From positions 32,001 through 96,000 of the forward strand of contig CBDCKN010000013.1 in the NCBI GenBank assembly GCA_965218295.1: a DNA stretch of 64,000 nt. Direction: 5' to 3'. Each line of letters opens with the position of its first letter. The first letter of the stretch is position 1. This DNA is from Longimicrobiales bacterium. Its GTDB lineage: Bacteria; Gemmatimonadota; Gemmatimonadetes; Longimicrobiales; Gaopeijiaceae. Below the pieces are notes generated by a model. That model ran no database searches, was not told the origin of the DNA, and saw only the letters and a program-made list of their open reading frames with translations. A program made the position numbers and the translations under genes. This document shows, piece by piece, positions 37,818 through 42,119 of this stretch.

Positions 37818-38240
37818 ATGGCGCGGATTCGTGTCACGCTGAAGTGTATCAAGATTCTCGACAAGCTCGAACCGTTCTTCAAGGAGACGGGAGAGTTCCG
37901 GTTCCGTTCGCGTGTCTCGAGTGAGAACAGTGGCGGTCTCTCGGAGGAGACCCGCTTCCCCGAGGAGGGTCACTACTCCCTCTCGGACAAGCCAGGGTGG
38001 AATTTCGTCACTCTGAACAAAGTGCTGTTCGAGGGTGATGTGGAGGACCACCTGGTCGTCGATCTGTTGGGCGAAGAGATCGACCTCCTCTCCGCCAACG
38101 ACGAGCTCGATCGGTACCGCAGGGAGTTCAAGGGACCGGTCGACGACTGGGCAGGACTCTACGAGCCTGCGGACGAGGGATCGTCGGATCCGGAAGCCAT
38201 GTCCAACTGGCGCATCAGCTACATCATAGAGAGACTCTGA
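37818..38240 (+). CDS. Hypothetical protein (140 aa)
   Basis: GGAGGAG RBS, host-like codon usage, clean ORF. Confidence 0.75.
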   Translation: MARIRVTLKCIKILDKLEPFFKETGEFRFRSRVSSENSGGLSEETRFPEEGHYSLSDKPGWNFVTLNKVLFEGDVEDHLVVDLLGEEIDLLSANDELDRYRREFKGPVDDWAGLYEPADEGSSDPEAMSNWRISYIIERL

Positions 38241-38506
38241 ATAGAGAGACTCTGAGTCCCTAAAAGAAGGGGAATTATAAAGAAGGGTTGCGCGTCAATG
38301 GGCAGCACAGCATGTTGGGACCTTCATGGCAAGCCTCGGGAACCCCGATGACGTCGGGTTACCCGCTGAATACAAGAGCCTTGTTGGTCCGGCAGGGGTA
38401 GCTCCCCAGACCGGAGGGGGCAAATAGGTGGGATCTCCTCGTTCCTGAGGTTTGCCAACGGCCCGGCACCACGTCGGGAAGCCACCGGGAAGCAGGGAGC
38501 CTGTCC

Positions 38507-38896
38507 ATGTCACGCCCTCTCGTGCTGTTCCTACTCGCCAGTCTCATATTCCACCAGAACTTGGCCGCCCAGAACGATGAGCCGCCCCCTGGGCGGCACC
38601 CTCTACAGACCGCCGGACTAGTTGCGGGGATTGCGGGGATTGCATCGATGTTCGCGTCCCTGAATTACTCGTACGAGTGCCCCAAAGGGCTGGAGCACAG
38701 CGACCTTGGCTATGAGTGCTACGCTGACTACGACAAGAAGCTCCACACGGAGCTGGCCCGGCCAACCATGCTATATGCCGGCATCGGCGGGCTTGTCGGG
38801 GGCGTGATTATTGCCAAGATAGGGAAGGGTCGGTCGGAGAAGGGCACGTCCGTCACGATCACACCCAACGGCGTCATCGTTGCCTATCGTTGGTGA
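38507..38896 (+). CDS. IS passenger: secreted/membrane hypothetical protein
   Basis: GGGAG RBS, signal peptide, two hydrophobic segments flanking a Cys pair, C-terminal GVIVAYRW. Confidence 0.7.
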   Translation: MSRPLVLFLLASLIFHQNLAAQNDEPPPGRHPLQTAGLVAGIAGIASMFASLNYSYECPKGLEHSDLGYECYADYDKKLHTELARPTMLYAGIGGLVGGVIIAKIGKGRSEKGTSVTITPNGVIVAYRW

Positions 38897-38939
38897 AGTT
38901 CGTTATTGTATAACGGTACCCACCGCAAAGGGAGGTCTG

Positions 38940-39107
38940 ATGACCAGCGAGTCGACCGAGACGACCGCAAAGCCCCCGCACGTCAAGAAGAAGCCTCGCA
39001 AGGCCGATTACAAGGGGGCCAGTCCAGAGCAGGTAGCCGAGGCGCTCTTGCGCTACCGGCCACCCGAGGAAGGCCCCAAACCAGAAAAATCTGACCGCTT
39101 CCTCTAA
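38940..39107 (+). CDS. IS passenger: 55-aa basic protein
   Basis: GGAGG RBS, ATG at 38940; KKKPRKADYKGASPEQVAEALLRYRP; palindrome CGTTAT-TGT-ATAACG upstream. Confidence 0.65.
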   Translation: MTSESTETTAKPPHVKKKPRKADYKGASPEQVAEALLRYRPPEEGPKPEKSDRFL

Positions 39108-39136
39108 GCCGGTGTGGTGGGGACGGAAAGGGGGAT

Positions 39137-39209
39137 AGGCGCCGCCCGGAATCGAACCGGGAGAAACAAGGATTGCTAGCCCTGTGCCTTACCATTCGGC
39201 CACGGCGCC
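39137..39209 (-). tRNA. tRNA-like gene with a tRNA-Cys body and a non-canonical anticodon loop (CUAGCAA(U))
   Basis: GGCGCCG/CGGCGCC acceptor + U73; D arm GCC-GAATGGTAA-GGC; T arm CCCGG-TTCGATT-CCGGG; no CCA. Confidence 0.8.
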
Positions 39210-39318
39210 CCATCCCTTTCCGTCCCTTCGTAATTCGTGTAGCTTCTATATGTGACGGGTGCAAAACGGCCCTTCTCCGCCTCTCCAAAGGCGGCTCGAA
39301 AATTCCAGACAGTAAATC

Positions 39319-39350
39319 GCGCCTCACCGGGCTGAACCCCGGTGAGGCGC
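39319..39350 (-). terminator. 13-bp hairpin downstream of the transposase
   Basis: GCGCCTCACCGGG/CCCGGTGAGGCGC; only a weak U tract. Confidence 0.5.
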
Positions 39351-39384
39351 TCTCAATTTAACGCACTACATCTTGTGGGCAAAC

Positions 39385-40320
39385 TCAGTCGGCTATCAAT
39401 TCCTTGTACATGAGCCGCTTGCCGACCATCTCCGCGACCACGTGGCGCATCTGGTCCATGGTGTCCATGCTCCGGATGTTGTGTCTCCCTGCGAACTCAT
39501 CGACGTAGCGCTGTAGGTGCTTCGCGCTCAGCTTGTGGAACGTGCCCTTGTGGGCTCTCTTGAGGGTCGCCCAGAAGCTTTCGATACCGTTGGTATGGGC
39601 CATGCCCCTTACGTACTCTCCGACGCCGTGACGGACCGCCTCGCGATTCTGGATCCTATCGTAGGCCGCCGCCTCGTCCGTGTAGACCTTCGCGCCGGGC
39701 TTGGTGTGCTCAAGCACGAACCCCTCTAGCGTCCGGCGGGTCGTATCGTCCACGGCTTGAGCAATGACTTTGCCGGTGGCGTGATCCCTCGCACCCACTA
39801 CCGTGGCCTTGCCGACACCGCCACGGCCGGCCCGCAGCTTCTTCTGATTGTGCTTGTTGCGCTCGATTCCGCCGACGAACGTTTCGTCCACTTCGACCGG
39901 CCCTTGGAAGATGAGCGGGCCGACGTGGGCGAACGCTTCGCGGATGCGTTGCTGCATGTACCAAGCGGTGGGCTGGGAGATACCGAGATCCCGGTGGAGC
40001 TTCATGGAGGAAACGCCCTTGAGGCTCGTGCAGTCCAGGTAGATCGCGTACAGCCAGGTCTTGAGCGGCAGCGGCGATCCAGCCATGAGTGTTCCCGTCT
40101 TGACGCTGAAATACTTCCCGCAGTCACGGCAGCGATACGGCATCTTGACGTGCTTGCACTCGTAGGTGTCGAGGCCAGCGCACCGTGGGCAGTGGCGCTC
40201 TCCGGAGGACCATACGATGCCCTCGAACCACTCGCGTGCCGACTCTTCCGTAGGGAACAGCTCAGCCAGCTCCAGGAGTGTGATCCCCTTACGGTTGCTC
40301 TTGCCGGGTCCGTTCGCCAT
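39385..40320 (-). CDS. IS1595 family DDE transposase
   Basis: Zn ribbon CPRC...CRDC, FSVKTGT, KGVSSMKLHRDLG, VEVDETFVGG, YTDE, HTNGIESFW..LKR, KHL.RYVDEF. Confidence 0.96.
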   Translation of the reverse strand: MANGPGKSNRKGITLLELAELFPTEESAREWFEGIVWSSGERHCPRCAGLDTYECKHVKMPYRCRDCGKYFSVKTGTLMAGSPLPLKTWLYAIYLDCTSLKGVSSMKLHRDLGISQPTAWYMQQRIREAFAHVGPLIFQGPVEVDETFVGGIERNKHNQKKLRAGRGGVGKATVVGARDHATGKVIAQAVDDTTRRTLEGFVLEHTKPGAKVYTDEAAAYDRIQNREAVRHGVGEYVRGMAHTNGIESFWATLKRAHKGTFHKLSAKHLQRYVDEFAGRHNIRSMDTMDQMRHVVAEMVGKRLMYKELIAD

Positions 40321-40349
40321 CTCCATATCTCCCTTGAGGTTATACAAGA

Positions 40350-40378
40350 AAGATACAGAATAGTTGCCCGCTAGTCAA
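40350..40378 (-). promoter_or_regulatory. sigma70-type transposase promoter overlapping the IR
   Basis: TTGACT-17 bp-TATCTT on the minus strand; the -35 box overlaps the inner IR end. Confidence 0.6.
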
Positions 40379-40394
40379 CCCTTCTTTATAATTC

Positions 40395-42119
40395 CTAAAA
40401 GAAGACGGGCTCCTTGTAGCTTCCGAAGACCACCTCCATGGCATGCCGGATTTCGTACAACGTGCAGTCGGTCCGTGCACAGTCGAGGATCGCCGGCACC
40501 ACGTTGCCACCGTCGCGACACACAGCTTCGAGGGTCTGTAAGGTCTCCTGCACGCGGTCGTCGTCCCTGAGGGCTCGAAGCTCGGCCATGCGCCGACGCT
40601 GACGCTCCTCCACGGACGCATCGATCTTGAGGGTATCGATCTCGATGTCCTCCGAGCCCTCTGTGAACTCGTTCACGCCCACCACCAGCCGCCGGGACGA
40701 CTCCACTTCGTCCTGCAGGCGTAGGGCCGAGTGCGCGATCTCGGATTGGAAGAAGCCCGTCTCGATGCCCGGAACGACCCCGCCCTGCTCGTCGATCTGC
40801 CGGAAGAGGTCGAGGGCCTCGGCCTCGAGCCGGTCCGTAAGGGATTCCACGTAATAGGAGCCCGCCAGCGGATCGATGGTGTTGGGCACGCCGCTCTCGT
40901 AGGCGAGGATCTGCTGTGTACGAAGCGCGATCCGGACGGTCTTCTCCGTGGGGAGCGCCAGGGTCTCGTCCATGGAGTTGGTGTGTAGCGATTGGGTTCC
41001 ACCCAGCACGGCGGCCATGGCCTGGTAGGCAACGCGCACGATGTTGTTCTCGGGCTGCTGCGCCATGAGGCTCACCCCGGCAGTCTGTGCGTGGGTACGG
41101 AGCCTCCACGCGTCCGGATTCGTGGCGCCATATGTGTCGCGCATGGCCCGAGCCCAGATCCGTCGCGCCGCCCGGAACTTCGCGATCTCCTCGAAGAAGT
41201 CGTTGTGGACGTCGAAGAAGAACGAGAGCCGTGGAGCGAAGCGGTTCACGTCCAGGCCCCGCTCTATTCCCCTCTCCACGTACTCGAAGCCGTTCCTCAG
41301 CGTGAACGCCAGCTCCTGGGCGGCCGTGGCACCGGCCTCCCGAATGTGGTAGCCGGATATGGAGATCGGGTTGTACTTGGGCGCGTGCTCCGAGCACCAC
41401 TCGAACATGTCGACGACGCAGCGCAGCGCAGGCTCAGGCGGGAAGATCCAGGCGTGCTGCGCCTGGTACTCCTTGAGGATGTCGTTCTGGACGGTACCTC
41501 GGAGCTTATCCGGCGAGATGCCTTGCCGCTCGGCCGCCGCCACGTAGAAGCAGTAGAGGATGACGGCCGGCCCGTTGATGGTCATGGAGACCGAGACCTG
41601 GTCGAGGGGGATGCCCTCGAAGAGCGTCTCCATGTCGTGCAGGGATGAGATGGCCACCCCGCAGACACCCACTTCCCCCAGAGAACGCGGGTGGTCGCTG
41701 TCGTAGCCCATCAGGGTGGGAAAGTCGAAGGCCACGGACAGGCCCGTGGTGCCGTGGTTCAGAAGGTACCTGTACCGCTCGTTCGTCTCCTCGGACGTGG
41801 CGAAGCCCGCGAATTGACGCATGGTCCAGAGGCGCGTGCGGTACATGGTGGAGTAGGGACCACGAGTGAACGGGAACCGGCCGGGAACCCCCAGGGCATC
41901 CTCGTAGCTCTCAGCCCCTGCCCGGTCGGCCGGCGTGTAGAGCGGCTTTACGTCCATACCGGAAAGAGTCGTGAAGAGCCCGTCCCGCGTGGGCGTCGCC
42001 TCGAACTCCTCCTCCCACGCCTTCAGCTGCTCCCGCAGCCTGTCGATCTCGGCCTTCTGTGCGGCCACCTGCTCCATCAGGTCGCCGGGAGAAGTCATAT
42101 CCCGTTCAAGAGTGGACAT
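40395..42119 (-). CDS. icmA: Acyl-CoA mutase large subunit, isobutyryl-CoA mutase type
   Basis: PFTRGPY, WTMRQFAGF (F, not Y), KEYQAQH (Q, not R), ISGYHIREAG, GGTQSLHTN. Confidence 0.8.
   Translation of the reverse strand: MSTLERDMTSPGDLMEQVAAQKAEIDRLREQLKAWEEEFEATPTRDGLFTTLSGMDVKPLYTPADRAGAESYEDALGVPGRFPFTRGPYSTMYRTRLWTMRQFAGFATSEETNERYRYLLNHGTTGLSVAFDFPTLMGYDSDHPRSLGEVGVCGVAISSLHDMETLFEGIPLDQVSVSMTINGPAVILYCFYVAAAERQGISPDKLRGTVQNDILKEYQAQHAWIFPPEPALRCVVDMFEWCSEHAPKYNPISISGYHIREAGATAAQELAFTLRNGFEYVERGIERGLDVNRFAPRLSFFFDVHNDFFEEIAKFRAARRIWARAMRDTYGATNPDAWRLRTHAQTAGVSLMAQQPENNIVRVAYQAMAAVLGGTQSLHTNSMDETLALPTEKTVRIALRTQQILAYESGVPNTIDPLAGSYYVESLTDRLEAEALDLFRQIDEQGGVVPGIETGFFQSEIAHSALRLQDEVESSRRLVVGVNEFTEGSEDIEIDTLKIDASVEERQRRRMAELRALRDDDRVQETLQTLEAVCRDGGNVVPAILDCARTDCTLYEIRHAMEVVFGSYKEPVFF

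Follow-up and report, generated by a model that had tools for sequence, protein, structure and literature searches.

The window analysed here is a stretch of 64,000 nucleotides from a Longimicrobiales bacterium of the phylum Gemmatimonadota (assembly GCA_965218295.1, contig CBDCKN010000013.1, positions 32,001 to 96,000 of the forward strand). Positions 38270-40396 of the window are occupied by a transporter insertion sequence (IS) of the IS1595 family, an element of 2127 bp that is single-copy in its genome. Besides the transposase gene it harbors a structured leader RNA followed by an open reading frame (ORF) for a putatively exported protein, a gene for a small basic protein and, convergent with the latter, a derivative of tRNA-Cys with an enlarged anticodon loop. 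The coordinates of all features are compiled in Table 1.

Table 1. Features of the IS1595 element and of its borders in the window
Feature	Position	Strand	Remarks
Left target-site duplication AAAAGAAG	38262..38269		8 bp; one copy in the empty site of G001 and G002
Terminal inverted repeat, cargo end	38270..38290		21 bp, begins GGGAATTAT; commonest end among 78 relatives
Structured leader RNA, distant relative of sRNA-Xcc1	38328..38478	+	Covariation, profile, weak Rfam match
129-aa orphan protein, exchangeable cargo slot	38507..38896	+	Hydrophobic N-terminus, likely exported
55-aa basic protein, family typical of this IS1595 lineage	38940..39107	+	One predicted helix (residues 29-37), rest extended
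Outer stem, 3' arm	39120..39132	-	13 bp; encloses the tRNA-like gene
tRNA-Cys derivative	39137..39209	-	7/5 cloverleaf, U73, A15:U48, no encoded CCA
8-nt anticodon loop CUAGCAAU	39172-39179	-	In the tRNA-Cys derivative; 5-pair stem
Outer stem, 5' arm	39214..39226	-	Encloses the tRNA-like gene
13-bp hairpin, predicted start of the leader of the tRNA-like gene	39319..39350	-	Also terminator-like score
Candidate sigma-70 promoter of the tRNA cassette	39355..39382	-	TTGCCC-16-TAAATT, 8/12 consensus bases
Intact IS1595-family DDE transposase with zinc ribbon	39385..40347	-	Probable start ATG 40326 or 40320
Terminal inverted repeat, transposase end	40376..40396		Terminal A for G
Right target-site duplication AAAAGAAG	40397..40404		8 bp

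The element was compared with its relatives by means of an end-finding script, which was run on 163 loci (160 fetched and three from the own genome) and accepted 82 of them; dropping the doubtful L015, collapsing copies and adding the elements of relatives yielded 78 distinct complete elements with sizes of 1.3-5 kb. An earlier reading of the bare sequence, the original prediction, had described a complete IS1595 element with an intact transposase, perfect 20-bp inverted repeats, ends of the ggnnatTAT type and an 8-bp target-site duplication (TSD), and all of this proved correct. The transposase scores above the cut-offs of Pfam DDE_Tnp_IS1595 (137 bits), the zinc ribbon (31.9 bits) and NCBIfam IS1595 (177 bits), and it is the single transposase of the element; a search of plasmids returned generic IS1595 labels only, the best matches listed being 34-45% identical. 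The perfect repeat arms (38271-38290 and 40376-40395) extend to 21 bp with one terminal mismatch, an A replacing the G at the transposase end. Because the ends of the relatives start with GG (72 of 78 at the transposase end, 77 of 78 at the far end), we place the true ends at 38270 and 40396; equally, the duplication at the junction could be taken to be 9 or 11 bp long, at the expense of a shorter end. The ISNwi1-type motif ggnnatTAT, taken in the form given by the original prediction, is present as GGGAATTAT at the cargo end and as AGGAATTAT at the transposase end. Passenger-carrying IS1595 elements are known, and Siguier, Gagnevin and Chandler reportedly described in 2009 the transporter IS (tIS) of this family with ISNwi1-type ends. 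The element of the window shares with this type the zinc-ribbon DDE transposase, the ends, the 8-bp TSD and the location of passengers between the repeats, but it is set apart by passengers among which a structured leader RNA and a derivative of a tRNA are found.

The octamer AAAAGAAG, which lies on both sides of the element, is present as a single copy in the empty site of two genomes of the same genus, namely G001 with flanks of 98-99% and G002 with flanks of 95-97% identity, and contigs from two runs also join across the empty site. Sponge microbiomes are suggested as the habitat by the record titles of some relatives and by the labels of two RNA runs. G002 contains a 2150-bp sister element at a different site, with perfect ends and a different TSD. 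The empty sites and run contigs, together with the location of the sister element elsewhere in G002, indicate that the insertion is recent, in agreement with the recent activity proposed originally. The insertion point is the stop codon of a methylmalonyl-CoA mutase gene (40395-40397). The non-consensus terminal base of the element completes the original TAG stop and leaves the C-terminus of the mutase unchanged; the consensus base would lengthen the protein by three residues. An outward sigma-70-like site (TTGCCC-17-TATAAT, 10/12; 40364-40392, forward strand) overlaps the inverted repeat and points, in antisense orientation, towards the mutase gene, whose 3' end it faces. To the left of the insertion, a 140-aa gene ends in a 15-bp tandem duplication (38226-38255) that is single in G001 and different in G002 and in the run contigs, so that the intergenic gap represents a variable spot.

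The tRNA-like gene scores 55.2 bits with the Rfam tRNA model (cut-off 29) and is about 81% identical to the native tRNA-Cys of the host. Its cloverleaf, U73 and GCA triplet are those of a canonical tRNA-Cys, but the anticodon loop comprises eight instead of seven nucleotides. Counted from the 3' side of the loop, GCA stands at the canonical place and is preceded by one extra base, and ARAGORN reports a four-base anticodon 'agca'. An assignment as tRNA-Ala(AGC) was ruled out by the lack of a G3.U70 pair and by the sister copy, which does not fold in that register. The gene is neither an insertion target nor one half of a split host gene, as it lies inside the repeats and an intact native tRNA-Cys is located on C6. 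Elsewhere in the same genome (C9, 276539-280522), 18 tRNA genes are arrayed in about 4 kb.

Both the tRNA-like gene and the adjacent 55-aa ORF are real, as is the outer stem beginning 12 nt after the stop of the small ORF, which had been noted originally. The region folds with a z-score of -4.3, and the outer stem has another sequence in the copies of G002 and of C15 in the own genome. A sigma-70-like site followed by a strong hairpin lies upstream of the tRNA-like gene in five of the seven cassettes checked; a stricter promoter scan did not report the site at 39355-39382. The leader hairpin (39319-39350) shows one compensatory pair in the sister element. In the latter (L188, ~1720-1750), the leader ahead of the tRNA-like gene contains the sequence of the anticodon hairpin a second time. 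Low-depth contigs of the RNA run X21 are identical to 38927-39207 and possibly represent DNA carry-over; both end at 39207, two bases short of the predicted 5' end, and this end, seen in contigs of one study, was not weighed as evidence of processing.

Enlarged loops of eight to nine nucleotides with GCA at the canonical 3' position recur in the sister element of G002 (CUCGCAAA), in a 1746-bp alphaproteobacterial element present in two copies in G452 (CCCGCAAU) and in L128 (CUUCGCAAG). All four genomic copies keep U73 and share the pair A15:U48; the native tRNA-Cys genes have a 7-nt loop and G15:C48 in 14 of 14 cases. The runs X21 and X2 contain near-identical copies with two-base loop insertions, and since these variants hardly differ otherwise, the change is concentrated in the loop. 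The extra bases (A, C, UC or UA) are always located 5' of GCA. In the acceptor, D and T stems 97.8% of the cells pair and 10 of 15 pairs change on both sides. None of 500 shuffles reaches this level, a count that is not to be read as a probability because the set, five element-borne copies (including C15) and one native gene, consists of related sequences. The copies of the window and of G002 are 77% identical and retain 19 of 20 stem pairs, a conservation that a substitution simulation attained in 0.5-1% of the trials. This pattern bears on the view that a captured host tRNA-Cys is decaying neutrally, with an early loop lesion favoured by mild toxicity of the second copy. Such a relic would fit the identity with the native gene, the rarity of the unit among the elements and the wobble and mismatch pairs in the anticodon stem. 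It is nevertheless quite improbable in view of stem pairing far above random, a leader hairpin that is compensated as well, and the occurrence of the same loop type on different stems in alphaproteobacterial elements, one of them at two copies in G452.

A pattern search of 401 genomes of the phylum matched two, namely the window's own genome and one whose matched sequence is not a tRNA, and a strict pattern matched none of the viral contigs. A looser pattern matched 23 of 66 genomes, mostly as noise, and three distinct true tRNA-like genes passed the stem filter. Among 52 scored viral matches to a pattern with a non-U base before GCA, 32 have 7-nt loops, six have 8-9-nt loops and 14 pair poorly; L272 and L311 are clear cases of 8-9-nt loops, and L289 fits the alanine register better. 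The viral loci L246, L255, L260, L275 and L281 contain a family of phage tRNA-Cys genes that stand alone and are nearly identical to one another, but have A, C or G ahead of GCA; many other phage tRNA-Cys genes have C instead of U at this place.

Other elements of the lineage carry different tRNA bodies. C15 has a Cys-type body without GCA, C3 of the own genome a Sec/allo-like tRNA with an extended acceptor stem located tail-to-tail with the small ORF, L129 an arginine-like body with a distorted loop, and L022 and L473 a type that apparently lacks the D arm. In an archaeal (Nitrosopumilaceae) genome, two copies of the lineage's element (L145, 4945-5026, and L147) harbor a tRNA with a long arm, a CAA anticodon and a G after the acceptor stem. 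L474 (4122-4214) contains a tRNA-like gene with a large anticodon-loop insertion about 450 bp from a homologue of the small ORF, with no IS1595 transposase within 8.5 kb. The occupation of the same slot by several unrelated tRNA bodies, all with distorted anticodon arms, would be expected if the tRNA shape served solely as a processing or boundary signal and the anticodon were irrelevant. RNase P and 3' trimming would then stop read-through between the transposase side and the small ORF, or release antisense or leader RNA. The hairpin leader upstream and the acceptor and T stems, which are the best kept, are consistent with this idea, but GCA followed by A is retained in the window, G002, G452, L128 and two run variants despite replaced anticodon and acceptor stems. 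As a pure shape signal would not need GCA, we regard this explanation as rather unlikely.

Eight-base anticodon loops are the classic form of +1 suppressors, and positions 34-36 of the enlarged loops read AGC or CGC. A cysteine-charged recoding tRNA could read UGCN four-base codons or place cysteine at alanine codons via its NGC triplet. The second tRNA of G452 (L210, 3119-3195), with a short variable arm, an arginine-like D loop, A73 and a GCU (serine) anticodon, is a candidate Ser-to-Arg missense tRNA by its sequence and would be in keeping with such a role. A further parallel is the Streptomyces tRNA-ProA (PMC10404621), a mistranslating tRNA that combines an AGC anticodon with a body other than that of alanine. 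The tRNA-ProX described there shares with the window the disagreement between body identity and the triplet AGC at 34-36, but the tRNA of the window has G1:C72 instead of C1:G72, its enlarged loop keeps the cognate GCA, and the element contains no synthetase ORF. The copy of G002 pairs at one of five positions in the 7-nt alanine register versus four of five in the 8-nt register, and the element shows no frameshifted gene in need of recoding and brings no partner synthetase. The insertions, moreover, vary in length (1-2 nt) and sequence. Such variation speaks against any fixed code, whether four-base or alanine, and resembles conflict-driven change; recoding is accordingly very improbable.

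According to the original prediction, the cargo may act together as one module. The tally of the 78 elements documents the same kinds of cargo in related elements, as expected, and speaks against their unity: the leader RNA is present in 24, the small ORF in 57 and the tRNA-like gene in nine, and all three are combined in five (the window, G002, C15, C3 and L129). The list of tRNAs is a manual selection from the results of ARAGORN and of T-arm scans and may miss odd cases; relaxed ARAGORN settings gave many false calls. The count excludes the ARAGORN matches 3' of the transposases in L037/L039/L041, L062/L067/L068 and L089, for which element ends could not be located. The tRNA-bearing elements are scattered over several branches of the transposase tree, a quick tree that was used only to show this scatter. 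Between the window and the sister element of G002, the leader RNA (98% identity), the small ORF (93%) and the transposase gene (92%) are more similar than the tRNA-like gene (77%) and the leader of the latter (71%). In place of the 129-aa ORF, the sister element has from beyond the first codons an unrelated ORF of the lipoprotein type. The tally and the swapped ORF rule out a single fixed module: the cargo consists of three separately assorting units. A related 3879-bp element on C3 (~194340-198220) is interrupted by a second IS, which is putatively IS3-like by its sequence. The cargo of L001, L189, L190 and L197 presumably comprises, judged by eye, a KilA-N fusion of the small ORF, a DNA methyltransferase, a HicA/HicB-like pair and an aspartyl-protease-like gene.

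The small basic protein belongs to a family for which iterative searches retrieved 157 distinct loci; at 132 of these, the stretch that was fetched also contains an IS1595 transposase. The family is present in 52 of the 60 genomes searched and comprises 660 clusters at E-values up to 0.001. Position and strand of the ORF vary among the elements, and its product has a core resembling ATPE-x-A-x-AL, preceded in many members by an RGRP motif. No Pfam, NCBIfam or PHROG family and no toxin or antitoxin family matched, and the structural model (pLDDT 73, pTM 0.34) had no match in the Protein Data Bank (PDB). An accessory role in DNA binding is a guess on our part.

The tail-to-tail arrangement of the tRNA-like gene and the small ORF raises the question of a two-part addiction or translation-control module, in which a charged but poorly decoding tRNA mimic would slow translation or drain cysteine, and the small protein or antisense transcription would restrain it. 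The two genes face each other within about 110 nt in seven of ten tRNA-bearing elements (L473 having been added after the tally), with unrelated tRNA bodies and at either element end. Irregular tRNAs also occur near toxin-antitoxin genes, and two engineered variants of them killed Escherichia coli (PMC5389517). The seven cases represent, however, about five independent events. No tRNA-like gene was detected in 50 of the 57 elements with the small ORF, and at the 157 small-ORF loci the strict scan yielded four real tRNA-like neighbours, to which inspection by hand added a few more. No small ORF was detected in two of the nine tRNA-bearing elements (L128 and L145/L147). Since so many elements lack one of the partners, the obligate linkage of a toxin-antitoxin system is absent, and such a module is unlikely. 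The small protein is probably a general accessory of the transposon lineage rather than a dedicated partner of the tRNA. We likewise give little credence to the wider scenario that the lineage spreads enlarged-loop tRNAs across phyla with the tail-to-tail small protein as their controller, a translation-control module that would rewire decoding (four-base, or missense at cysteine or alanine codons) or neutralise tRNA-cutting toxins.

The 5' non-coding segment at the cargo end is not unusually stable on its own (z = -0.55), but covariation supports the structured segment of the original prediction and, on the evidence of the aligned copies, identifies it as a real structured RNA. Closing and inner helix are paired in 98% of the cells (30 sequences), seven of 14 pairs change on both sides, and none of 500 shuffles is as high. 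A 5' helix (38328-38343/38441-38456) crosses the closing helix (38353-38360/38460-38467), which is extended by pairing of 38344-38349 with 38473-38478. As two long helices cross, the RNA is predicted to form a pseudoknot or a switch. In 38 sequences, one of them mis-anchored and two others having been dropped for want of anchors, pairing between the region 5' of the core and the one ahead of the closing helix averages -30.5 kcal/mol, compared with -16.3 for mismatched partners. A profile built from the three own-genome copies gave 41 matches across the 163 loci, 37 of them distinct, and an identical contig of the RNA run X22 spans 38277-38485.

The leader RNA appears to be a distant relative of sRNA-Xcc1 (RF02221). 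With 25.2 bits for the window and 30.8 bits for a short relative, the scores lie below the gathering threshold of 53 bits, and the sub-threshold alignments are full-length and include the closing helix and the hairpin with the AAUACAA internal loop. RF02221 had no match for L141 or in 16 loci, a search of five genomes yielded nothing but carries no weight, its 14 controls having been without a match as well, and a blastn search of plasmids with the leader RNA gave no match. A preprint (bioRxiv 10.1101/2025.06.18.660453) locates sRNA-Xcc1 upstream of symE in Xanthomonas cassettes. Judged by this source and by PMC12189769, both RNAs share the closing helix with the AAUACAA / GAAUA internal loop, a mobile-element location and a position upstream of a small gene. 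The family of the window differs by an additional 5' helix of 13-22 pairs that crosses the closing helix, by an optional extra arm and by its position ahead of exported proteins: a hydrophobic N-terminus is encoded by 21 of 26 ORFs behind the leader RNA, versus 72 of 430 in the background. No ORF was called behind 11 of the 37 copies. The 129-aa ORF of the window is real and has three near-identical matches only, and the secretion ascribed to it by the original prediction reduces to the hydrophobic N-terminus; it has no RNA cover in the run contigs, which was not weighed as evidence. The leader RNA probably gates the expression of whatever exported protein lies behind it.

For the tRNA we tentatively favour, with somewhat less than even confidence, the interpretation that it serves in this recent three-unit element as a nuclease-resistant spare or decoy tRNA-Cys protecting the translation of the host. 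The cassette would be transcribed from its own promoter, and host enzymes would trim the product and add the CCA tail. As U73 and GCA persist although the stems have been exchanged, the RNA is probably charged by cysteinyl-tRNA synthetase; this retention points to the synthetase, UGY codons or a nuclease specific for GCA as the recognising partner. The insertion, which varies between copies (A, C, UC, UA), may alter the loop that anticodon nucleases recognise, and the RNA would then either still read UGY codons or tie up the nuclease. It is the combination of retained U73 and GCA with a varying insertion that leads us to prefer the spare or decoy. Phage tRNAs are reported to evade or neutralise anticodon nucleases in a similar way (PMC10264068, PMC11464382, PMC11555353). 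They share with the window the mobile-element location and an altered anticodon loop, the latter also in the form of the 8-9-nt loops of the phage tRNA-Cys genes L272 and L311. The window differs in that its carrier is a transposon and no cognate nuclease was identified, and the parts seen of these sources mention no loop enlargement.

Several observations weigh against a protective tRNA-Cys. No tRNA-cutting nuclease is linked to the elements, the host not having been searched for one, and the tRNA-like genes of C15, C3, L022, L473, L129 and L145 are without GCA, for which reason a Cys-specific role cannot be general. Two-base loop insertions are expected to decode poorly. The unit is rare, both among the complete elements (9/78) and by pattern in the phylum (2/401 genomes, one of them with a non-tRNA match). 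Transcription is supported by a few low-depth contigs that possibly derive from DNA, and the compensation within the stems could partly predate capture if the copies came from different donors. The charged tRNA1 species of PMC5389517 failed to deliver their amino acid to the codon that corresponds to positions 34-36, and 'Cys' does not appear in the main text of PMC10264068.

Mukai et al. (PMC5389517; reviewed in PMC7609411) have described and assayed irregular tRNAs in the neighbourhood of transposon-related and toxin-antitoxin genes, so that the statement of the original prediction that no characterised tRNA-like passenger is known is only partly right. Searches of the open literature (without subscription papers, ISfinder and supplements) brought up no tRNA-Cys with an enlarged loop that is located within an IS1595 element. 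The tRNA1 species were charged by HisRS, possibly via a cognate triplet displaced to positions 35-37, and the charged irregular species were apparently unused in translation (PMC5389517). The displaced triplet, comparable to the displaced GCA of the window, and the transposon neighbourhood are shared; cysteine identity, the enlarged loop and a complete IS with ends, TSD and empty site are not. The tRNA of the window also differs from the allo-tRNAs of these sources by a 7/5 branch and a short variable arm instead of 8/4 or 9/3 with a long arm; the C3 copy looks closer to the allo/Sec type. The new part is the recurring, fold-conserved tRNA-Cys passenger with an enlarged loop, irregular tRNAs near transposons having been published before.

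Why mobile elements carry tRNAs is debated and has been studied mostly in phages. The present case is compact and open to testing: a small transposon, well delimited at both ends and with the empty site as a control, carries a 73-nt RNA of which natural variants exist. This tRNA has preserved its fold and its cysteine identity, but has an enlarged anticodon loop that differs even among near-identical copies. Natural tRNAs with 8-9-nt loops also bear on the engineering of four-base codons. If the tRNA were inert, there would remain an ordinary transporter IS and a family of RNA leaders. For the IS1595 family, the comparison documents one lineage that mixes expression units, namely a leader RNA with an exported protein, a small protein and a tRNA cassette, and moves them between phyla.

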